From an uncultured Verrucomicrobiota bacterium (GTDB lineage: Bacteria; Verrucomicrobiota; Verrucomicrobiia; CAZIPW01): a DNA stretch of 64,000 bases. Position 1 is the first letter of the stretch. Each line of letters opens with the position of its first letter. The notes under the pieces were generated by a model. That model was given only the letters and a program-made list of their open reading frames with translations. It ran no database searches and was not told where the DNA came from. The translations under genes and the position numbers were made by a program. Positions 3,149-48,674 of this stretch are shown one piece after another. Location: contig CAZIPW010000001.1 in NCBI GenBank assembly GCA_964541675.1, forward strand, positions 67,493 to 131,492, given 5' to 3'.

Positions 3149-3586
3149 TTACTTGACGGGTTCTCTCAGGCTTCTGCCCAAGGTCGGGGCAATTTTGTCC
3201 AGGATGCCGTTGATAAACTTTCCCGACTCCTCGTTGGAGAAACTCTTGGCCAGGTCAATGGCCTCATTCATCGTTACAACCGGTGGAATGTCAGGCCGAT
3301 TGTAAAACTCATAGATGGCCAGCCTCAATATGGTCAGGTCCACCTTGTGAAGACGGGAACGATCCCAGTTTTCCAGCCTTTCGTCTATGATCTTGTCAAT
3401 CTTGTCGAGGTTCTGGAGTGTTCCAATGATCAGTTGTTTGCAAAACTCCCTGTCGTCAATGGGCAACTCGAAGGCCTCCCATATTGTTTCCAGAGAGTGA
3501 TCCATTTCGCTCATGGGAAGCTTGTTGATTTCCCAAAAATACAGGAATTGGATGACGGCTTCTCTTAATTGGCGGCGTTTGGGCAT
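3149..3586 (-). CDS. nusB: transcription antitermination factor NusB
   Basis: 145 aa. RQLREAVIQFLYFWE...LDRSRLHKVDLTILRLAIYEF...VTMNEAIDLAKSF follows the NusB family pattern. It sits just downstream of the epimerase gene and upstream of ftsY on the same strand. Confidence 0.8.
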   Translation of the reverse strand: MPKRRQLREAVIQFLYFWEINKLPMSEMDHSLETIWEAFELPIDDREFCKQLIIGTLQNLDKIDKIIDERLENWDRSRLHKVDLTILRLAIYEFYNRPDIPPVVTMNEAIDLAKSFSNEESGKFINGILDKIAPTLGRSLREPVK

Positions 3587-8983: not shown

Positions 8984-9574
8984 TTAGAATTGCACCTTGG
9001 GGGCGGCGCGCTCGGCGTCATTGGTAATTTCAAAAAGCGAGGCATCCTGGAACCCGAACATTCCGGCCAAGACCACGTTGGGGAAGGTCTGACGGGCGGT
9101 GTTGTATTTCATTACCGCGTCGTTGTAAGCCTGACGGGCAAAGGAGACTTTGTTCTCGGTGGAGGTCAATTCCTCGGAGAGTTGTCTCATATTAGCGTCG
9201 GCTTTCAGGTTCGGATAACTTTCGGCGACGGCCATGAGGCGTCCGAGGGTCCCGGTCAGGACTCCTTCGGCGCTTGCCAGGCCAGCCACGGCTGCTGCGT
9301 CCGTTGCGTCGCCGCCGACCTTCTGATGGGCGGTGTAGGCGGTGTTGCGGGCGGCGATCACGGCTTCGAGCGTCTGGCTCTCATGCTTGAGGTAGCCCTT
9401 GGCGGTCTCCACGAGGTTGGGAATCAGATCGTAGCGGCGTTTGAGCTGGACGTCTATTTGCGCGAAAGCATTCTTGAATTGATTGCGGAAGGCGACGAGG
9501 GTGTTGTAGATGCCAATGATAGCGATCACAAGGACGACTACCACGACGATGCCGATTATAAGTGGGATATTCAT
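8984..9574 (-). CDS. lemA: LemA-family protein
   Basis: N-terminal TM helix followed by LVAFRNQFKNAFAQIDVQLKRRYDLIPNLVETAKGY, which is typical of LemA. Its stop overlaps the htpX start region. Confidence 0.8.
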   Translation of the reverse strand: MNIPLIIGIVVVVVLVIAIIGIYNTLVAFRNQFKNAFAQIDVQLKRRYDLIPNLVETAKGYLKHESQTLEAVIAARNTAYTAHQKVGGDATDAAAVAGLASAEGVLTGTLGRLMAVAESYPNLKADANMRQLSEELTSTENKVSFARQAYNDAVMKYNTARQTFPNVVLAGMFGFQDASLFEITNDAERAAPKVQF

Positions 9575-9667: not shown

Positions 9668-9698
9668 ATCACTGTTATTGTCACTGTTTAACAGTGAT
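9668..9698. promoter_or_regulatory. tripartite TCACTG/CAGTGA repeat element (site A), about 95 bp upstream of the lemA start
   Basis: ATCACTG-ttatt-GTCACTG-tttaa-CAGTGAT. Hexamer cores begin at 9669, 9681 and 9692 (11-12 bp phasing). On the minus strand the element directly adjoins a TATATACT -10-like box. Confidence 0.45.
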
Positions 9699-9939
9699 AA
9701 TTGGGTAATGTACACCGTGTTGCACGAAGCTATAGAAATCCCATAAAATGGGCAGTGGGGCTTATTGGACTTATAGGACATATAAGAAGCTGGATTTTTT
9801 TGACTGGTAAAAGATAAAGATTGCTAAGGGCATTATATCAGGTTTTTGGGAGGGGGGTATGAACAAGACCTTCGGGACATTTGCGACTTTCAGGACAGGA
9901 AGGATAAACACCCTGCCTGGCTTCAGTCAGAAGCCGATT

Positions 9940-19448: not shown

Positions 19449-20759
19449 GTGGATCCTGCCAAGCCCAAGTCCAAGCGTAAGCCAGAACCGTTTAGTCATG
19501 AGATCGTATACTTTATTGTAAACGGAGGCGGCAGGGAGTGTCACAGAAAAATCTATCCCTCAAGGTTACATGCTCTCGCGCTGGCGATCGGGATTAGGTA
19601 TGGCAATTTGGACGAAAATATACGAAAGGTATATGCGCAAGAGCTTGTCAGTCGTATGTCGGGCTATATTGAGCAATCCTGCGCGCAGGCGGGGGTATCC
19701 GCGGCGGCCTGCAAACGGGTCTTCGCCACAAACGCCGGTCAAGTGGTGGGGATAACCTTTAGGAGAAGATACAAAAATCCCAATTACATGGGTGTTTCTT
19801 CGAAAGAGATCGGGGGCGGGACGCGCATACTGACTAGAAGCGAAAAAGAACTTAACGCCAGCATCTTTGTCATGAAACTCTCTCATACGATCCAGTGGCT
19901 TGTTCAGGACAAGAGAACAAGGCGGGTAATAAGAGATTTTCAAGTGATTGGCAGTCTGAGAACTGATCCAGACAGATTTCCCAGAATAGAGAAGTTGGCG
20001 GCTCCTCAACTTGGAAAATTCATGAAATCGGGCATCCGCGGGATTGACAGGGAGTCTCAACTGCAGGAGGGGCGGTTGGCTTTGTGGGCGGCAGCCCGAG
20101 GGTATGAGGCAAGAAACTTCTCAACCTTTGGCCATTTTGCCAGGGTGGCGCTCGATCACAAATTCTGCAATCTGCTTCGATATAGCCTGGCCGACAAACG
20201 ACGCGTCAACCGTTCTTTGGTGCCAATCGGTGGAAATATCGGGGATTCCTATACGGGCAGTCAGGTCGACAGTGTCTCATACGCCCATTGGGAGGCGCAG
20301 CAGAGCATATACGATGCTGCAGATGAAGAGATTGGTCGCAGAATCAGACACAATGGGTTACCCGCTTTGGGCGTGCTTAGAAGCAAACTCGGAGGGGATG
20401 CCGCCGCGGTCAAGCTTTTCGAGATGTTGGTGCACGGCAACCCCGAAAGAACCGTCAGTGGAGCGGATCTAAACGGCGAGGTGCTCCCTGGAATGTCTCC
20501 GTTTGCCAAATGGCTGCTCTACAAAAAGAATTTCGGCCTAAAAGGGTTTGAGAGGGAGGCCAGATTCCGGGGTGACGGTAATGATGGGACGTTCTGGGAA
20601 AAACTGCCGGAGGCGGATGAATCGAATTTCCCACATCTGAATGAAGGGACGGTAGAGGTGTCGGATAGCCTGCCTGACGCGGCGGAGAAATACCTTGACG
20701 AGTATCATGGTGTGGCGCAAGTGGAGATGGGGGATTATGATGCCGACTCTTGGGAGTAA
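19449..20759 (+). CDS. hypothetical 436-aa protein with an internal sigma-70 region-2-like segment
   Basis: ESQLQEGRLALWAAARGYEARNFSTFGHFARVALDHKFCNLLR resembles sigma70 region 2.2-2.4 (LIQEG.LGL.KA...F...FSTYA.WWIRQAI.R). No clear region-4 HTH was recognised. An AT-rich promoter-like stretch (tatataatatactataaa) lies upstream. Confidence 0.35.
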   Translation: MDPAKPKSKRKPEPFSHEIVYFIVNGGGRECHRKIYPSRLHALALAIGIRYGNLDENIRKVYAQELVSRMSGYIEQSCAQAGVSAAACKRVFATNAGQVVGITFRRRYKNPNYMGVSSKEIGGGTRILTRSEKELNASIFVMKLSHTIQWLVQDKRTRRVIRDFQVIGSLRTDPDRFPRIEKLAAPQLGKFMKSGIRGIDRESQLQEGRLALWAAARGYEARNFSTFGHFARVALDHKFCNLLRYSLADKRRVNRSLVPIGGNIGDSYTGSQVDSVSYAHWEAQQSIYDAADEEIGRRIRHNGLPALGVLRSKLGGDAAAVKLFEMLVHGNPERTVSGADLNGEVLPGMSPFAKWLLYKKNFGLKGFEREARFRGDGNDGTFWEKLPEADESNFPHLNEGTVEVSDSLPDAAEKYLDEYHGVAQVEMGDYDADSWE

Positions 20760-20937
20760 ACTGACATAAGATTAGCCCCTCCCCAAACTCTGGTATAATC
20801 TCTTCCGTGCATACCGATTCTTTCCCACTCAGAATAATTCTCCAGGGGCTTCCTATATGTCCAATAGGTACTATAAGTCCTACGGCCTCTCTCGGTATGC
20901 CCGCAGCCCCATATCAAACTAAGGATAACACCCTATC

Positions 20938-21021
20938 ATCACTGATAAACCGTGAGATAGCAGTGATTATGAGGCAAATGCTTCCCTCAAGATCACTGTG
21001 GAGCAGTGATTTTGCAGTGAT
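20938..21021. promoter_or_regulatory. two adjacent tripartite TCACTG/CAGTGA repeat clusters (sites B1 and B2), ~70 bp upstream of rbfA
   Basis: B1 (20938-20967) is ATCACTG-ataaa-CCGTGAG-atag-CAGTGAT. B2 (20992-21021) is ATCACTG-tggag-CAGTGAT-tttg-CAGTGAT. Spacing within each cluster is 11-12 bp for cores matching the consensus; B1's last hexamer follows the degenerate CGTGAG by 10 bp. Confidence 0.45.
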
Positions 21022-21088
21022 TCCCAAACAGGCTCCCCAAGTTTGCTCGTTGCGGTTTCCATGTGTTTGCTGTATGCTTGGAACTCTT

Positions 21089-21475
21089 ATGAACGAACCC
21101 GAAGGCCGCATGACGCGCGTGGACAAGCTCCTATACCAGAGTCTTGCGGAAATATTGCGCGTGCGTTATCCCAAAGAGACGCTCGCCATTACCTTGACGG
21201 GCGTCAAGTGTTCGCCGGATCTTTTCAACGCGCACGTCTCCTACTCGGTGATGAATGACGACAAGAAAAGCGCGGTGGATTTTTTCAGGAAGAACGCGCG
21301 GGAAATTGGCCGAGCCATGGCCAAGGACGTGGCACTCAAGCGCCACCCAAAACTGCATTTTATCTACGATGAGTCGATCAAGAACATGGCCTCTGTTGAT
21401 AGGCTCTTGCACGAGATGATGGATACGCATGAACTTCCGCCGATCGAGATGGAGACGAAGAAGAAGCAAATATGA
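21089..21475 (+). CDS. rbfA: ribosome-binding factor A
   Basis: MTRVDKLLYQSLAEILRV...ITLTGVKCSPDLFNAHVSYSV matches the RbfA pattern (R..RV...I...L....DPRL..VTIT.VE.S.DL..A.VY.S). Start could be 21074, 21089 or 21110. The track ORF begins at 20807, which is too far upstream. Confidence 0.7.
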   Translation: MNEPEGRMTRVDKLLYQSLAEILRVRYPKETLAITLTGVKCSPDLFNAHVSYSVMNDDKKSAVDFFRKNAREIGRAMAKDVALKRHPKLHFIYDESIKNMASVDRLLHEMMDTHELPPIEMETKKKQI

Positions 21476-21733: not shown

Positions 21734-22732
21734 ATGGCTAAAACAATACCCACGCTCAGAGATCTGGCCCAGACCCTCAAAAAGCTGAAGGGGCCGATAG
21801 TGGTTGTGGGACACGCCCACCCCGACGGTGACTGCGTGGGTTCCACCGTGGGTCTGGTGGAGGTGCTGCGCGGCATGGGCAAGGAGGCGTATGGTATGTG
21901 TCCGGATGCCATACCGGAAGAGCTACGCTTTATCATCGAGGGGACATCCTGGCTGGCGACCGATTTGAAGGCACTGGATGGGAAGACGGTTATTGTGGTG
22001 GACACGGCTACGAGCAAGCTATTGGAGAACTTTTCGGGCATCTCGCCTGCGCTGGTGATAGATCACCACTCCAGCCGGACCGCGTTCGGGGAGGCCGAGT
22101 ATGTGGACGCAGATGCCTCCAGCGTGTCGCAGATCATTGTCGAATTGGCCCGGGAGCATCGCCTCAAAGTAAGCAAGACGGGCCTTTTGGCCCTGTACAG
22201 CGGGATGCTCACCGATACCTACCGGTTTTTGTACGGGACTGAAAAAGATAGTTATTTCAAAACCCTGCAGGCAGCTTCGTGGATCGCCGAGCAGGGGGTG
22301 AACGTGAAGCGTGCCACAGAAACGCTGACGGCCACTTATACGAGGGAATTCTTGAATCTGTTGAGTCTGGCGTTGAGCAAGGCCGAGTTTATGGAGGATG
22401 GCAAACTGGTTTTGGTCGGGCTCTCCGAGGAGGAGATCAAAAAGGCTGGCGGAACCCTGCAGGACAAGGATATCCTGGTGAGCTTCCTGCGTTCCATCAA
22501 GGGAGTGGAGATGTCTGCTGTCCTTATGGAGTCAAAAGGAAAGAGTTTTGGGAGCGTTCGTGCCACGGAGGCCTCCCAGAAGGCCAACAAGCTTTGCGAG
22601 GTTTTTGGCGGGGGCGGACATGATCGGGCGGGCGGAATAAGGAACATGGAGGTCCCCCTGGGCGAACTTTTGCCTCGCTTCCGAAAAGAATTTCTGGCAC
22701 ACTGGAAGGTTTATGGCCCAAAGCAGATTTAG
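21734..22732 (+). CDS. nrnA: DHH/DHHA1 phosphoesterase (NrnA-type bifunctional oligoribonuclease/pAp phosphatase)
   Basis: DHH motif [13 protein letters not shown], a DHHA1 GGGGH motif near the C-terminus, and the conserved rbfA-DHH-truB gene order. Confidence 0.75.
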
Positions 22733-23456
22733 ATTTCCGGAGACTTTCAGCGGGATACTCTTTATTGACAAGCCGATGGGATGCACTTCCCACGACGTGG
22801 TGGACTGCGTCAGGCACACTCTGGGTATGAAAAGGGTGGGGCACGCCGGGACGCTGGACCCCATGGCTACCGGACTTTTGATCATTCTGGTGGGACAGGC
22901 GACCAAGACCTCCCAATTCCTGATGGGGTTGGACAAGACGTACACCGGGACTTTGAAGTTGGGCGAGACGACCGACAGCCACGACGCCGACGGCGAGGTA
23001 ACCCAAACGCGCCCGGTGGAGGGAATAACAGCCGAGAGCCTTACCGCCGTGATGAAGGGATTTATTGGGGATCAGTATCAGATGCCTCCCATGTTCAGCG
23101 CCAAGAAACAGGGTGGACAGACCCTTTACAAGCTGGCTAGGCAGGGCATCGAGGTGGAGCGCGAGCCGAGGTTTATCCGTATCAGCGCACTCAACATTGG
23201 CAGCATCAATCTGCCCTTCGCCGATTTTGAAGTCATGTGCAGCAAAGGGACCTACGTCAGAACCCTGGCTCATGATATCGGCGAGAAGCTCCGTTGTGGA
23301 GCGCATCTGACAGCCCTACGGCGCACGGCCATCGACAAATTTACCGTGGATATGTCCGTGAAACTGGCGGACTTTGAGAACATGGATGAGGTGGCGATCC
23401 GCCAGGCGGTAAGGCCGACCTTCCAGGTGGTGCCAGCAAGGGTGCTGGGATCTTAG
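22713..23456 (+). CDS. truB: tRNA pseudouridine(55) synthase
   Basis: [17 protein letters not shown]...[14 protein letters not shown], including the catalytic Asp motif, and a PUA-less short TruB core. Confidence 0.85.
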
Positions 23457-33407: not shown

Positions 33408-34478
33408 CTACGCGGAGCGCGCGCGTCCCTCCTCCACCTGCCAGATTTTCCATTTTCCGGATTCCGAAGTGGGCATGATCGTGCCGCTCGCAAAGACCTG
33501 CAGATTTCCCACGGAGGCCCAAAACGCCTTCTGGCGGGCGGGATCGAGCTCCAAAAGCAGATCGTCGCACACAAGAACCGGCGCAATCCGCAGTTTCTCG
33601 TACAAAAGCTGCAATCCCGCCAGTTTGATGGCCAGGACCAGCGAGAACTTCTGCCCTTCGGAGGCGTAGAGCTCTGCAGACAGCCCGTTGAGCGTGATCA
33701 GAAGATTGTCCCGATGCGGGCCTTTCGAGGTATGCCCCAACGCGCGGTCTTTCCCCTCGCGCAACTCCAGCCATAGTTTTTCCAGCTCCTCGGCGAGGGC
33801 ATTGGGCGCGTAGATGAGCCCGGGGATCTCTTTGGCGGGGGCAAAGGATGCGAAGGCCTTTGAGAATTTATCCATGAGCAGCTCAACGGCCCGCTGCCTG
33901 CTTTTGATGATGCGGCGCGCGGTCGCGGCCATGACGCTCTCAAAGGCCTCGAATTCCTTCGGGGAAGGGAAGGGCTCTGCCTGCAGAAGCTGATTGCGGC
34001 TTCGGACAGCCTTCTCATATTCAAAAAGGCACCCCCGGTAGGCCGGATCCATCTGCGCGATAAGCCGGTCGATCTCCTCACGACGCGACTCCGGTCCGCC
34101 GTAGATAAGCGCGCGGTCGGCAAGAGTCAGCGCCACCACGGGAAAGACGCCGGAGAGCTCCCCGACTGTTTTGATCGGCTCATTGTCGAGGGTGGCGCGT
34201 CTTGACGAGGGGGTGATGGCCACGCCCAGGACAGTCTCCCCGCGTTTCTCATGTTGCCAATGACTGCGAATGACGGCTTCGGGGCGGCCTTCCATGACGA
34301 GAGCCTCGCGCTTTTTGGTGCGGAAGGAATCGAGCGTGCCGGCATAGGCGAGAGCCTCCAGTATGTTTGTTTTTCCCTGGCCGTTACCACCCAGGAAGAA
34401 ATGCCTGTCGCCCTCAAAATCAAGCCGCGCGCTGGCGATGTTTCTAAAAGAGTCCAACTCGAGGCGGGTCAGGCGCAT
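33408..34478 (-). CDS. recF: DNA replication and repair protein RecF
   Basis: MRLTRLELDSFRNIASARLDFEGDRHFFLGGNGQGKTNILEAL (Walker A), plus the C-terminal signature and Walker B motifs. Confidence 0.85.
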   Translation of the reverse strand: MRLTRLELDSFRNIASARLDFEGDRHFFLGGNGQGKTNILEALAYAGTLDSFRTKKREALVMEGRPEAVIRSHWQHEKRGETVLGVAITPSSRRATLDNEPIKTVGELSGVFPVVALTLADRALIYGGPESRREEIDRLIAQMDPAYRGCLFEYEKAVRSRNQLLQAEPFPSPKEFEAFESVMAATARRIIKSRQRAVELLMDKFSKAFASFAPAKEIPGLIYAPNALAEELEKLWLELREGKDRALGHTSKGPHRDNLLITLNGLSAELYASEGQKFSLVLAIKLAGLQLLYEKLRIAPVLVCDDLLLELDPARQKAFWASVGNLQVFASGTIMPTSESGKWKIWQVEEGRARSA

Positions 34479-34542: not shown

Positions 34543-34572
34543 ATCACTGCAGAATCACTGCTCCACAGTGAT
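34543..34572. promoter_or_regulatory. tripartite TCACTG/CAGTGA repeat element (site C), 65-95 bp upstream of the recF start
   Basis: ATCACTG-caga-ATCACTG-ctcca-CAGTGAT; hexamer cores at 34544, 34555 and 34566. Confidence 0.45.
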
Positions 34573-34584
34573 TTTTCCTTAGGG

Positions 34585-34770
34585 CTGGGTGCGTACGCCA
34601 CGGGTTGAAACCCGAGACTCGATCGGGGCTAGAGTACTTCCATAAATTATGTGGTCCGTGATTCCACGCGCCCCCCGTAAAGAGCACCCTCCTTCGCCGA
34701 GGCTTCGGAGGGCAGGCCTCCACCGGGGGCTATACAAGGCAACCCACAAGGGGTTGGGCTGATTGGAAAT
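34585..34770. ncRNA. GC-rich, stem-loop-dense intergenic segment; candidate structured RNA of unknown class
   Basis: There is no convincing ORF here. Local hairpins include ccctcc...ggaggg, ggagg-cagg-cctcc and cggg-ttgaaa-cccg. It does not match the tmRNA, SRP RNA or RNase P conserved regions I can recall. Confidence 0.15.
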
Positions 34771-34941
34771 AACATATGTTTTATGTAAGTGTTCTAACGC
34801 GAGGACACTTTGCGCTTTGGTATAATCAATGGGCTCCGGGATATGCCAGGATACTTTTGGTGGGCCCTTGTTTCCCCAAACAAAACAGCCTGCCGCAACT
34901 GGATGGTTGTGCATGGCGGCATTATACCACTTCCCTTGGTA

Positions 34942-34972
34942 CCCTCTCTTTTACTAGCCCATCTCCTTGTTT
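34942..34972. repeat. ~30-nt remnant of the 3' end, plus downstream flank, of a LivK-like binding-protein gene
   Basis: ccctctcttttactagcccatctccttgtt matches cccctcttttaccagcccatctccttgtt (35482-35510), which is the stop region of the first array gene. The element is otherwise isolated. Confidence 0.5.
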
Positions 34973-34986
34973 TTATCCGAGATTAA

Positions 34987-35265
34987 TCAGTCACCTCCAG
35001 CCCGTTTTAAGGCCTCGGCGGCTTCCTCGGGCTTACCCATTCGCTTCGCGCAGGTCGCAAGGGACAGCCACACTCGCCGCGGGGGAGAAGGCTCGCGCCT
35101 AACAATCTCCCGATATACCCCATAAGCCTCTTCTGGCTCATTATTCCTCAAAAGTTCCTCGGCCTTAGCTATCAAGTAGGAAATGCACTCTTGACGAGAC
35201 ATTTTTGCGGTAATGTGCGAATTGAAGCTATAGTCTTCAGCTCCGTCAGAAAATAAATCTTTCAT
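34987..35265 (-). CDS. small TPR-like hypothetical protein
   Basis: 92-aa ORF with one or two TPR-like helix pairs (EEAYGVYREIV...LSLATCAKRMGKPEEAAEALKRA). Weakly supported. Confidence 0.3.
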   Translation of the reverse strand: MKDLFSDGAEDYSFNSHITAKMSRQECISYLIAKAEELLRNNEPEEAYGVYREIVRREPSPPRRVWLSLATCAKRMGKPEEAAEALKRAGGD

Positions 35266-35489
35266 TGCGCCTTGTTCCAGTTTGCATCTGGTGGATACGC
35301 TGTCAAGATCCCTTCGCCAAAGGGCTGGACGGTGACTCTAGTGGGTACGCCTTGTATCACTCCAACGAGGTTCACTACAGACATAGGTGCCGGGTCCTTG
35401 AGGGACGCGTATTCTTTGTACGTGGTCGGCGTGTTGGCGATGGGCCATGTACCCTAGATTATGTCGGCGTCAGACCACTATCCCCTCTT

Positions 35490-36575
35490 TTACCAGCCCA
35501 TCTCCTTGTTGAGGTCGGCGAAATCGGGCGAGGGTATCGCTCTGCCGTGATCGTATTTTAGAATTTTAAAGGCCATGCGGAAGTTCCGGCTGGGGCCGGG
35601 ATAGATCATGCCCGATGCCCCGCGCCAAGGACTAAGCCCAGTCATTGCTTTTATCAATTCATCAGAGCCGGGTGCCTTGTCGGGAAACTTCTCGAATCCT
35701 TTTATGATTGTCTGCATCTGGTCGTAACCGTAACTGGCATAGAAAGGCGGCTCATGTTTGTATTTTGCCCTGTAGGCTGTGTTAAATGCTTCATCTGGAT
35801 TGCTGTCGCTAATGTAGGATATTCCCTCGGCGATCTTTGGCTCAGGCAAGGCCTCGAAGTACCCTGTTATTCTACAAGTCAATCCCATCTCTTTTGACTG
35901 GCGTAGGATGATCTCCGTTTCCGGCTGGTTCCCCCACACCAATAAAATGTCGGGCTTTGCCTCTTTGACTCTTATGAGCATGGTTCTGAAGTCTTGTACG
36001 GGTACATTATATGTCTCGTGGTAGACGATTGTGAGCGTTTTATCATTTTTTAGGGGCGCGAGGAAATCGGGGACGGCGTAATTGTAGTCTGCCGAGTTCT
36101 CTTGCAGGATTGCAATGCGGCACGCGCTCCACCTCTTGATCATCTTGTATTGGATGGCCGCATAGTCGTCGCAGAAAGGCGCGAGATTGATGGTGTAGTG
36201 ATATTTTTGAGTCCAGTAAAGGTCCCATTCACCGGCCATATGAAGGATCTTTTTTCCTTCCGAGATCGGACAGACCGCCATTGCCGTGGGGCCCCAGATG
36301 CTGCAAATGACATTGACCTTGTCGACATTTGCAAACTTTTGGGCAACAAGAGAAGCCCTTCCAGGCTTGTACTCTGAATCCTCGAAGATCAGCTTGTACT
36401 GATGATGCGTGGGCCCGCATTCGGCCAATGCGTATTGCATACCCTCCCTCATACCTTCTCCAAGAAAGGCGTTCTCTCCGGAGAATGGCAGCACAGCACC
36501 GATCTTAATGACGTCGGCCTGGGCTACGCCCCAAAGCGCGGCGGCCAGCATAAGTGTAAGAAATGTATGCTTCAT
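35490..36575 (-). CDS. LivK-like periplasmic solute-binding protein (Peripla_BP_6 family), array copy 1
   Basis: Signal peptide, then ADVIKIGAVLPFSGENAFLGEGMREG. The pattern aligns with E. coli LivJ (IKVAVVGAMSGP...G...G...AI...N). C-terminus ...FADLNKEMGW. The track ORF extends to 36638. Confidence 0.6.
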   Translation of the reverse strand: MKHTFLTLMLAAALWGVAQADVIKIGAVLPFSGENAFLGEGMREGMQYALAECGPTHHQYKLIFEDSEYKPGRASLVAQKFANVDKVNVICSIWGPTAMAVCPISEGKKILHMAGEWDLYWTQKYHYTINLAPFCDDYAAIQYKMIKRWSACRIAILQENSADYNYAVPDFLAPLKNDKTLTIVYHETYNVPVQDFRTMLIRVKEAKPDILLVWGNQPETEIILRQSKEMGLTCRITGYFEALPEPKIAEGISYISDSNPDEAFNTAYRAKYKHEPPFYASYGYDQMQTIIKGFEKFPDKAPGSDELIKAMTGLSPWRGASGMIYPGPSRNFRMAFKILKYDHGRAIPSPDFADLNKEMGW

Positions 36576-46278: not shown

Positions 46279-46526
46279 CCCTTTCGGCGTTGGGCTAATG
46301 TGTGACTTCACGCTCTCACGAGGGGGCATCTTTTTTCTGTTATAATGCCTGCACGCAATACTATGTCCAAAACATCGACATCCCCTCCCATGACTCTCAT
46401 TCGTCCCGGAATTCCGTTGTCCCTCTCTTCTCAATCGGCCTACTCTCAAAGTATGTCTGCTTTCAATTATACACCATATATTGCCTATATTACAGTCAAA
46501 CACAATAATACACAAGTTACCCAATC

Positions 46527-46557
46527 ATCACTGATAAACAGTGACAATAACAGTGAT
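46527..46557. promoter_or_regulatory. tripartite TCACTG/CAGTGA repeat element (site D), about 100 bp upstream of the uvrB start
   Basis: ATCACTG-ataaa-CAGTGAC-aataa-CAGTGAT; cores at 46528, 46539 and 46551. It sits inside a longer 13-nt inverted repeat, ccaatcatcactg...cagtgatgattgg (46521-46563). Confidence 0.45.
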
Positions 46558-46661: not shown

Positions 46662-48674
46662 ATGCTCTTTAATCTCCAAAGCAAATACTCCCTTGCCGGC
46701 GACCAGCCCGCGGCGCTTGAGGCTTTGGAGAAATCTCTCAGGGATGGAAACCGCTTTCAGACCCTCTTGGGCGTAACCGGCTCCGGCAAGACCTTCACGA
46801 TGGCCAACCTGATCCAAAAACTCGACCGACCCGCGCTTGTCATTTCCCATAACAAAACTTTGGCGGCCCAGCTTTACGGAGAATTCAAAAACTTTTTTCC
46901 CCAGAACGCCGTCGAGTATTTCGTCAGCTACTACGACTATTACCAGCCGGAAGCCTACATTCCCCAGACCGACACCTATATCGAAAAGGATTCCGCCATC
47001 AACGAGGAGATCGAGCGGCTGCGGCTTTCGGCCACTTCCTCGCTGATGTCACGCCGCGATGTGATCGTGGTGGCGAGCGTCTCCTGTATTTACGGCTTGG
47101 GAAGTCCGGAGGATTTCAAAGAGATGATGCTGGAACTCAAGCCCCGCATGGCGATTTCCCGGCAGAAGGTGCTGGAGCACCTGGCCGAGATCCAATACGC
47201 CCGCAATGATTATGATTTCAAGCGCGGAGTCTTCCGCGTGAGGGGCGAGAGCGTGGACATTTACCCGAGCTACCTGGAGAGCGCCATCCGGGTCAGCTGG
47301 TTTGGCGACGAAGTGGAGTCGCTCAGGGAACTCGATCCGGTGAGCGGCAAGATAGGGGCGTCTCTCGACAAATTTCTGCTTTTCCCTTCTACGTCCCACG
47401 CTACTCCGCGCCATAAACTTGAACAGGCCTTCGGACCAATCCGTTCCGAGTTGGACGGACGCGTGGCCGAACTGGAGGCGCAAAACAAGCTGGTGGAAGC
47501 GCAGCGGCTCAGGATGCGCACCGAGTACGATCTGGAGATGCTCCGCGAGATCGGGTTTTGTTCGGGGATCGAGAATTACTCGCGGCACATTTCGGGCAGG
47601 CCTCCCGGCAGCAGGCCAGACTGTCTGCTCGATTATATGCCCAAAGAAACGCTGGTCTTCCTAGACGAGAGTCACGTCAGCTGGCCGCAGATTCGGGGTA
47701 TGTTCAACGGCGATCGGGCGCGCAAGCAGCGGCTGGTCGACTACGGTTTTCGGCTCCCTTCGGCCCTCGACAACCGCCCCATGATGCCGGACGAGTTTTT
47801 GGGAACCGTGGGACAAATCGTTTTTGCCTCGGCGACTCCCGCCGATTACGAGTTGCAGAACTCCGCGGTGGTGGCCGAGCAGGTGGTGCGCCCGACGGGA
47901 CTGTTGGATCCAGAGATGATTGTGCGCCCCCTTGAAGGGCAGGTGGAAGATCTCATCAATGAGGCGGTGAAAGCGGCAAAGGAGGGGGAGCGCATCCTGG
48001 TCACTACTCTCACGAAACGCATGAGCGAGGATCTGACCGATTACCTGCGTGACCGAAAGTTGAAAGTGGAGTATCTGCACTCCGATATCGACGCGCTTGA
48101 GCGCGTGGAGATTTTGCGCAAACTGCGTCTGGGCGACTTTGATGTCCTGGTGGGGGTCAATCTTCTGCGTGAGGGGCTTGACCTGCCGGAGGTGGCGCTG
48201 GTGGCGATCCTCGATGCCGACAAGGAGGGTTTTTTGCGCTCAACGACGAGCCTTATCCAGACGGCGGGGCGGGCAGCGAGGCATATTAAGGGGCGGGTGA
48301 TCCTCTATGCCGACAACATGAACGACTCTCTGAAGGCCACTCTCGAAATTACCTCCAAGCGTCGTCAGAAACAGGAGGCCTACAACAGGAAGCACGGGAT
48401 CACCCCAAAAGGGGTCAAACGCGCGATAGAAGAGAGCATGAAACAGGCGGCTGTTGCCGAGCCGGAGAGGATCTTCGGCGAAGAAGAGGATATCAAGGAT
48501 GCGATTGCCGAGATGGAAAAGGAGATGCTGGAAGCCGCTGACAGGCTGGACTTTGAGCGTGCCGCGATCTTGCGCGATCAGATAGCCAGGATCAAGGGCA
48601 GTGGTGCCTCCAAGAAATCCAAGAGTTCTTTCTCGCCAGGGGGCATAAAAGCTGCTAGGATGAAGCCGTACTAA
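46662..48674 (+). CDS. uvrB: excinuclease ABC subunit B
   Basis: N-terminus resembles E. coli UvrB (GDQPAALEAL; Walker A GVTGSGKTFT). Also the beta-hairpin region, the helicase motifs and the C-terminal UVR domain. Confidence 0.95.
   Translation: MLFNLQSKYSLAGDQPAALEALEKSLRDGNRFQTLLGVTGSGKTFTMANLIQKLDRPALVISHNKTLAAQLYGEFKNFFPQNAVEYFVSYYDYYQPEAYIPQTDTYIEKDSAINEEIERLRLSATSSLMSRRDVIVVASVSCIYGLGSPEDFKEMMLELKPRMAISRQKVLEHLAEIQYARNDYDFKRGVFRVRGESVDIYPSYLESAIRVSWFGDEVESLRELDPVSGKIGASLDKFLLFPSTSHATPRHKLEQAFGPIRSELDGRVAELEAQNKLVEAQRLRMRTEYDLEMLREIGFCSGIENYSRHISGRPPGSRPDCLLDYMPKETLVFLDESHVSWPQIRGMFNGDRARKQRLVDYGFRLPSALDNRPMMPDEFLGTVGQIVFASATPADYELQNSAVVAEQVVRPTGLLDPEMIVRPLEGQVEDLINEAVKAAKEGERILVTTLTKRMSEDLTDYLRDRKLKVEYLHSDIDALERVEILRKLRLGDFDVLVGVNLLREGLDLPEVALVAILDADKEGFLRSTTSLIQTAGRAARHIKGRVILYADNMNDSLKATLEITSKRRQKQEAYNRKHGITPKGVKRAIEESMKQAAVAEPERIFGEEEDIKDAIAEMEKEMLEAADRLDFERAAILRDQIARIKGSGASKKSKSSFSPGGIKAARMKPY

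Follow-up and report, generated by a model that had tools for sequence, protein, structure and literature searches.

Hexamer clusters upstream of rbfA in a Verrucomicrobiota bacterium lie at the end of a predicted promoter-carrying repeat

Sequence alignments show that the two clusters of hexamers preceding rbfA form the conserved end of one copy of an approximately 250-bp repeat that carries a predicted promoter and is spread before many unrelated genes. The repeat is lineage-specific, modular, non-coding and dispersed, and as the clusters belong to it they are not a DNA-damage (SOS) site. The best explanation, to which we give a probability of about one half, is a cassette with a distal promoter and with hexamer triplets that would form an array for a putative DNA-binding regulator.

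The clusters upstream of rbfA and the cassette around them

The window, meaning the whole 64,000-nucleotide stretch that was analysed, contains two clusters with six hexamers, one of them degenerate, just 5' of rbfA, as the earlier note had described. The upstream cluster reads ATCACTG-ATAAA-CCGTGA-GATAG-CAGTGAT (20938-20967) and the downstream cluster ATCACTG-TGGAG-CAGTGA-TTTTG-CAGTGAT (20992-21021), with a gap of 26 bp between their cores and 68 bp from the last hexamer to the rbfA ATG at 21089. With up to two mismatches allowed, the tripartite pattern occurs three times with 5/5 spacing and twice with 5/6 spacing in the whole window, against means of 0.00 and 0.01, respectively, in 100 dinucleotide-preserving shuffles of the window. 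Given the near-absence of tripartite sites from shuffled sequence, a chance origin is ruled out and the observation of the clusters is correct, far beyond chance. The five clusters, at 9669-9697 (-), 20939-20966 (+), 20993-21020 (+), 34544-34571 (-) and 46528-46556 (+), hold 14 of the 22 CAGTGA/TCACTG hexamers of the window. Each lies upstream of, and is co-oriented with, the next gene, which is lemA, rbfA, recF or uvrB.

Both rbfA clusters are present as claimed, but they are not two copies of one thing; they belong to subtypes with differing spacers and flanks. Type I has the form ATCACTG-WTAAA-CAGTGA-N5/6-CAGTGAT with flanking palindromic arms (TTACCCAATC ... TATTGGGCAA) of 14-16 bp, and Type II the form (A)nATCACTG-TGGAG-CAGTGA-TTTTG-CAGTGAT(T)n, the spacers of which are almost invariant. 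In both, the triplet is built from the heptamer CAGTGAT as one inverted and two direct copies, 11-12 bp apart from centre to centre. The lineage DNA (232 kb) comprises the window and the retrieved contig loci L006-L035, the contigs being assumed to be one population. It holds 32 sites with at most one mismatch, 18 of Type I and 14 of Type II, in about 27 cassettes. As a perfect-match pattern served to retrieve most loci, these figures are biased in both the quality and the density of sites. The parts of the rbfA copy, the genes beyond it and the related sites in the window are as follows.

20776-20784, + strand: C-rich box CCCCTCCCC, the 5' edge of the cassette, 17 bp past the stop codon of the upstream gene (20759)
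20776-20799, + strand: C-box plus extended -10, CCCCTCCCC-N5-CTGGTATAAT, the start of the rbfA cassette
20790-20799, + strand: extended -10 promoter-like element CTG-G-TATAAT (predicted promoter P1), directed at the hexamers
20855-20883, + strand: module A core of phased GTCC-type repeats, a block conserved in alignments; the rbfA copy reads ATATGTCCAATAGGTACTATAAGTCCTAC
20896-20938, + strand: module B1 from alignments, diverged in the rbfA copy, with the left arm of the Type I palindrome at its end
20939-20966, + strand: Type I triplet TCACTG-ATAAA-CCGTGA-GATAG-CAGTGA, with a degenerate middle hexamer; one of the 18 Type I sites
20993-21020, + strand: Type II triplet TCACTG-TGGAG-CAGTGA-TTTTG-CAGTGA, perfect, with spacers kept family-wide; one of the 14 Type II sites
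21050-21078, + strand: candidate gene-proximal promoter P2, TTGCGG-17 nt-TATGCT, 10 nt 5' of the rbfA ATG
21089-21475, + strand: rbfA (Pfam RBFA, E=1e-19), the first gene past the cassette
21734-22732, + strand: DHH/DHHA1 gene (nrnA-like), a gene call, after rbfA
22713-23456, + strand: truB, a gene call, after the DHH/DHHA1 gene
9669-9856, - strand: lemA sister cassette, with C-box plus CTGATATAAT at 9832-9856, Type I triplet at 9669-9697 and the lemA ATG at 9574
46337-46556, + strand: uvrB sister cassette, with CTGTTATAAT at 46337-46346, Type I triplet at 46528-46556 and the uvrB ATG at 46662
34544-34571, - strand: Type II triplet of recF, with the recF ATG at 34478

Alignments extend the homology to about 200 bp 5' of the hexamers, up to a conserved promoter block. 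Rather than operators that evolved independently at each promoter, the clusters are the 3' modules of a homologous repeat cassette of 250-390 bp. Every cassette has at its 5' end a C-rich box and then a perfect extended -10 element, ACCCCCCTCCCC-AAAAC-CTGnTATAAT or CCCCCCTCCC-N5-CTGnTATAAT, on the same strand as the hexamers. The window contains just three CTGnTATAAT motifs, all of which lie 134-181 bp 5' of a same-strand Type I site. Throughout the lineage DNA, all 19 of the 19 motifs that combine the C-box with TGnTAnAAT have a same-strand triplet 100-390 bp downstream, and TGnTATAAT motifs without a C-box generally have no downstream triplet in the same 232 kb. The promoter block is followed by distinguishable modules. 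Module A (family consensus ATATGTCC-TATAA-GTCC-AATAA-GTCC-TAC), which is also common to the 'long' Type II cassettes, has an alternative in module A' (CACGCAATACCATGCCC), while module B1 (family consensus GGATTTTCACAGCC..ATAATACAACAC..TTACCCAATCA) leads into Type I and module B2 gives the long cassette of about 390 bp, where some 85 bp more of conserved sequence runs past Type II. The rbfA cassette is about 250 bp in length, and the 330-bp intergenic region 5' of rbfA is practically all cassette DNA.

Tandems in which Type I precedes Type II are seen at five loci, those of rbfA, dnaE (L007), an SBP_bac_5 gene (L011), the L014 gene and pth (L025), with gaps of 26-110 bp from Type I to Type II. 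The Type I half carries exactly one hexamer mismatch in all five tandems, at a position that differs each time, and the Type II half is perfect. There is therefore no evidence for cooperative occupancy or extra binding, and the strong or cooperative occupancy that the double cluster had been thought to imply is not borne out. The pattern suggests that the upstream Type I copy in the tandems is relaxed and is not cooperating, a comparison weakened by the perfect-match retrieval bias.

Within module A a second phased array, ATGTCC-TATAA-GTCC-AATAA-GTCC-TAC, is visible, with GTCC at a 9-bp period separated by A/T-rich 5-nt spacers. It is carried by L006, L009, L015, L019, L024, L027, L035 and the lemA cassette of the window; the rbfA copy (20855-20883) is a variant. 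It is built like the CAGTGA triplets and may be another protein-binding array. A small open reading frame or leader peptide from the conserved ATGTCC (MSYKSNKSY...) was rejected, as frame-shifting indels are present, the ATG is lost in some copies, all three codon positions carry substitutions and the frame of the rbfA copy closes after 20 codons.

Several cassettes show local peculiarities. In L008 two near-identical long cassettes of about 420 bp (1200-1610 and 3150-3560) lie either side of a xanthine/uracil permease gene; their flanks are conserved past the element, and the 1.3 kb beyond the second copy contain no well-supported gene. At uvrB a terminator-like hairpin with a T-run (GCTCTCACGAGGGGGC-ATCTTTTTT, 46312-46327), which closes the LptD-like gene upstream, directly adjoins TGTTATAAT in place of the usual C-box, and the L015 cassette has a comparable G-run/T-run variant at the C-box position. 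The Type II triplet of recF has a TGGTATAAT element without a C-box 349 bp upstream (34921-34929, minus strand). The stretch of about 0.9 kb 5' of recF (34572-35490) is without a convincing open reading frame and contains G+C-rich hairpin-like stretches and two TGGTATAAT elements, at 34818-34826 (+) and 34921-34929 (-). It gave no Rfam match at E<=5 and could be either an undescribed RNA or decayed cassette DNA.

Genomic context and lineage distribution

Genes in the loci were called by codon usage, and their start codons and proximal promoters are predictions. By these calls all 32 sites are intergenic and a co-directional gene start follows 21 of the 27 cassettes. Three or four cassettes, L026 (between convergent genes), L027 (antisense between two plus-strand genes), L030 and L008b, are without a co-directional gene, and two are ambiguous; those without one are easier to reconcile with a selfish or free-standing element than with an operator. 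The genes that follow the cassettes include those of DNA metabolism and translation (dnaE, thrS, pth, a RecD2-type helicase, the CCA-adding enzyme cca, uvrB, recF and rbfA), of energy and transport (atpD, the xanthine/uracil permease, a TonB-dependent receptor and SBP_bac_5) and others (a thioesterase, a sigma-54 response regulator, lemA and several small proteins). Information-processing genes may be over-represented in this small sample.

The last hexamer stands 55-69 bp before the start codon in the short Type II cassettes and 85-106 bp before it in 8 of the 11 Type I-only cassettes, and despite this narrow range the intervening stretch cannot be aligned across cassettes. At four of the genes a -10-like hexamer is seen 6-10 nt 5' of the ATG: CATAAT-acattc-ATG at dnaE, TAGGAT-agacag-ATG at recF, TATGCT-N10-ATG at rbfA, and also at the L011 gene. 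That of rbfA belongs to P2, a weak match read by eye that is not among the reports of the consensus scan. Reading of the sequence ahead of the rbfA ATG revealed no Shine-Dalgarno sequence, nor was one visible at dnaE, recF or the L011 gene, and the mRNAs of these four genes may be leaderless or nearly so.

Three further identities for the sites were considered and rejected. The GG-N10-GC element of a sigma-54 upstream activating sequence is absent between the sites and the start codons. A replication-oriented signal of the KOPS or Chi type does not fit, as the orientation flips with gene direction within 40 kb, and an invertible promoter (inverton) would have a partner repeat that is missing 5' of the promoter.

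The distribution of the element is narrow. A scan of 185,579 genomes, one per species, with the exact pattern gave three matches (Tessaracoccus, Nostoc and an Anaerolineaceae metagenome-assembled genome) where about two are expected by chance, and none of the three had the characteristic flanks. The metagenome scan gave 31 loci, 24 of them with shared flanks and all of these from a few JGI samples (Ga0181517, Ga0181520, Ga0181529 and Ga0182030). The RbfA protein of the window was recovered on contigs of Ga0181517 and of an ENA assembly. Overlapping metagenome contigs are identical to one another, and the nearest other UvrB is 78% identical. Among UvrB homologues the named Opitutales and Coraliomargarita matches have 67-69% identity and the closest relatives 74-78%, which places the organism in the Verrucomicrobiota near the Opitutales. 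At the uvrB loci of four of these relatives (74-78% UvrB identity) no hexamer clusters or C-box promoters were found. From the scan and these empty loci, the element is specific to a narrow lineage and is no ancient regulatory site of uvrB or rbfA.

One variant cassette, with a C-box plus GTGGTACAAT followed by ATCACTG-AGGAA-CAGTGA-TTTTA-CAGTGAT, is seen at 116-300 of L032 (Ga0182030_10516341), a short contig from another sample that is probably from a sister population. The only viral match, at 7040-7160 of L042 (IMGVR_UViG_3300047478_000224), lies in protein-coding DNA, as a tandem repeat (GAATCCAGTGATGAT...) of an acidic open reading frame rich in Ser, Asp and Glu, and is unrelated to the cassette. 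With this as the sole match, and none for the C-box promoter among viruses, a phage origin was rejected. In a separate observation, the lineage DNA is strongly depleted of RCATGY words relative to an order-4 Markov model (ACATGT 0 against 28 expected, GCATGC 10 against 62, ACATGC/GCATGT 6 against 42), and CCATGG, CTCGAG and CGATCG are likewise low. These deficits suggest that the organism has NspI-like and other restriction-modification systems.

The presence of uvrB, recF, dnaE and a RecD2-type helicase among the downstream genes might suggest that the clusters are SOS boxes, or sites for a different regulator of the DNA-damage response, be it LexA or an analogue, with rbfA included by chance. 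The LexA box of the Verrucomicrobia has been defined experimentally as a 14-bp palindrome, TGTTC-N4-GAACA, and tandem LexA sites are known at lexA promoters (Erill et al, 2016; PMC4951493). The cassettes share with this system the phylum and some target types, namely repair genes of the uvrB kind. The triplets, TCACTG-N5-CAGTGA-N5/6-CAGTGA, do not match the LexA box, however, and the targets are mostly non-repair genes such as atpD, thrS, pth, cca and those of the permease, the TonB receptor and the thioesterase; the four related genomes have no site 5' of uvrB, and the sites are embedded in a 250-bp repeat. Of the core SOS genes (lexA, recA and imuA-imuB-dnaE2), lexA and recA fall outside the DNA that was analysed. 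An SOS or LexA box is rejected on the motif mismatch, the heterogeneous targets and the lack of conservation in relatives, and damage-regulated operators in general are very improbable. The cassette-linked genes are not a DNA-damage regulon, and the view that the targets reach far beyond one is upheld by dnaE, thrS, atpD, pth, cca, the transporters and the sigma-54 regulator. Of the earlier proposal of a broader stress or growth-rate regulon, the part that stands is that the motif is real and is not specific to SOS. It also differs from the Verrucomicrobia LexA box, and a transcription factor bound to it is kept here as putative.

Protein site or RNA structure

The earlier note had named an rbfA transcription start upstream of both clusters as a geometry that could speak against it, and the predicted promoter P1 (20790-20799) does lie there, with a start that would fall near 20806. 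If P1 is active, the hexamers of the cassettes are 130-290 nt inside the transcript, where operators are not usually found and where an RNA element would fit just as well. The hexamers might act in RNA, P1 transcribing a leader or small RNA of 150-300 nt in which H1 pairs with H2 or H3. Such a hairpin could weakly terminate or attenuate transcription, stabilise the 5' end, be processed by an RNase or bind a protein, the UGGAG/AGGAG loop of Type II containing GGA. We regard this as rather doubtful, for the reasons that follow.

What speaks for a role in RNA is the direction of the perfectly conserved extended -10 element, which is aimed at the hexamers in every cassette, and the behaviour of Type II. 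Folded as RNA, Type II sites have energies of -10 to -18 kcal/mol and z-scores of -3 to -7, and the sense strand is the more stable in 14 of 14 (-14.0 against -9.8 kcal/mol for the antisense strand at rbfA), a strand bias in which the copies are not independent because they are nearly identical. The UGGAG/AGGAG loop and its stem, of which three of the seven pairs are G-C, are flanked by A- and U-runs, and the U-run can pair with the upstream A-run. Some cassettes moreover stand alone without a downstream gene, and at L011 a perfect TATAAT lies 4 nt 5' of the Type II hairpin.

Set against this, RNAalifold recovers only a 6-bp H1:H2 stem with 0 covarying pairs. The 16-bp hairpin of Type I is paired in 77.8% of cells compared with 77.3% in column shuffles (188 of 500 shuffles at or above the observed value), so that its covariation does not exceed that of shuffles and the palindrome exists at the consensus level only. 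For Type I it is also the antisense strand that is the more stable in 14 of the 18 copies. No Rfam family was matched, even at E<=10, there was no tRNA or tmRNA match, and the test for a structured cis-RNA or riboswitch failed for want of both covariation and an Rfam family. The putative 283-nt rbfA leader has a folding z-score of only -1.9, and the terminator scan detected no intrinsic terminator in 20740-21100. In the long family, conservation runs about 85 bp past Type II.

The pattern of conservation points in the same direction. The invariant or nearly invariant alignment columns are those of the C-box, of CTGnTATAAT and of the three hexamers, and the roughly 130 bp between them drift. 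Types I and II share the same hexamers although their spacers and flanks differ, and conservation extends to two hexamers outside the best hairpin, the middle one in Type I and the third one in Type II. Hexamer mismatches in single copies are uncompensated, and with no compensatory covariation it is the sequence and not the pairing that is under conservation. Taken together, the folding and conservation results favour sequence-specific recognition of three phased half-sites and point to a putative DNA-binding protein. Restriction sites and sites of very high affinity would be expected to be avoided throughout the genome. CAGTGA shows no such avoidance, with 40 occurrences observed elsewhere and 40.1 expected under an order-4 Markov model, which weighs against the protein-site reading.

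Related elements and a model for the cassette

Putative mobile promoters (PMPs) were described as homologous non-coding sequences 5' of non-homologous genes in one genome, with fragments from -150 to -50 whose alignments span 50 nt or more and reach 80% identity; their families have up to 93 members and a known mobilisation mechanism is not required (Matus-Garcia, Nijveen & van Passel, 2012; PMC3488235). Eleven pairs of cassettes align to this extent, for example cca and L028 (89% over 55 nt) and L033 and atpD (89% over 62 nt), and the family falls under the operational definition of PMPs. The rbfA copy is borderline, with 76% identity to L011 over 87 nt and 94-97% identity to five others over 34-35 nt. 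Like PMPs, the cassettes are homologous non-coding sequence ahead of non-homologous genes; unlike them, they are much longer (250-390 bp) and modular, with an extended -10 promoter at the far end and phased triplets at the near end.

Small non-coding multi-copy intergenic repeats that can be co-transcribed with their neighbours include the Correia elements of Neisseria, the pneumococcal BOX elements and the enterobacterial ERIC and BIME families. BOX elements are modular (A/B/C), and Correia elements can carry promoters and IHF sites. The cassette resembles these families in being small, intergenic, multi-copy and modular and in having a predicted promoter, but it differs in its strong sense bias 5' of genes and in its restriction to one Opitutales-like lineage, and we know of no sequence similarity to any of them. 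REP and REPIN sequences are short imperfect palindromes found mostly at gene 3' ends and linked to a RAYT transposase; Type I is a palindrome with arms of 14-16 bp, but 21 of the 27 cassettes lie 5' of genes in sense orientation.

The cassette might be regarded as a purely selfish, non-autonomous repeat (MITE-, REP- or REPIN-like), its triplets being sites for a mobilising enzyme and any effect on rbfA incidental. Its many copies, strict lineage restriction and absence from the orthologous uvrB loci of relatives would agree with this, as would the shuffling of the A/A' and B1/B2 modules, the copies in non-promoter contexts and the local duplication in L008. We consider it unlikely, since the ends of five long copies, with boundaries uncertain by a few bases, show none of the MITE hallmarks (terminal inverted repeats or target-site duplications, including those of the TA type) and the hexamers are at one end only. 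The same sense orientation, together with the constrained distance to the start codon and the purifying selection on the promoter block, also weighs against a purely selfish element, and no transposase or RAYT gene was seen in the loci, in which a minority of genes are annotated.

For the triplets themselves a parallel can be drawn with operators of the OmpR/PhoB family, such as the pho, PhoP and ArcA boxes, where a winged-helix response regulator binds phased direct repeats near a weak -35. The hexamer/heptamer-N5 direct repeats of the cassette have a similar 11-bp period (12 bp in some Type I sites) and, going by weak promoter predictions, would lie close to or overlap a weak -35. They differ in that an extra inverted copy is always present upstream, and in being embedded in a repeat cassette downstream of another promoter.

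In the preferred explanation, that of a distal promoter with an array for a DNA-binding regulator, the cassette would have spread within the lineage by duplication or mobilisation at the DNA level and would supply the distal promoter P1 to the downstream gene. The triplet would be the binding array of one putative sequence-specific DNA-binding protein, with its three half-sites on one face of the helix. It would sit just upstream of, or overlap, the gene-proximal promoter, a placement proposed because the distance to the start codon is constrained (55-69 bp for Type II and mostly 85-106 bp for Type I). The bound protein would co-regulate all the operons that carry a cassette, either switching the proximal promoter on or off or stopping transcription that comes in from P1. 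At rbfA it would act at the perfect Type II triplet, the mismatched Type I triplet being presumably a decaying remnant and not a cooperative partner. Against this explanation stand the place of the hexamers within a P1 transcript, the strand bias of Type II folding, the cassettes without a co-directional gene, the normal frequency of CAGTGA and cassette ends that show neither terminal inverted repeats nor target-site duplications to account for mobility.

For rbfA itself the consequence is modest: its upstream region is nearly all cassette DNA, with a strong distal promoter predicted. For the scanning of genomes the case carries a caution, in that a motif resembling an SOS box 5' of repair genes was part of a dispersed repeat. 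More broadly, and only tentatively, the cassettes may amount to a 'portable regulon', in which a promoter-plus-operator cassette has spread to the order of 100 intergenic regions under one putative regulator of phased CAGTGAT triplets, its scope covering replication (dnaE), repair (uvrB, recF, recD2), translation (rbfA-truB, thrS, pth, cca), energy (atpD) and transport. If so, a global network would have been built recently by the spread of a cassette and not by site-by-site evolution. Should the cassette indeed deliver both promoter and operator, it would be a clean natural case of large-scale transcriptional rewiring by propagation of a module, and would hint at an unrecognised global regulator in the Verrucomicrobiota.
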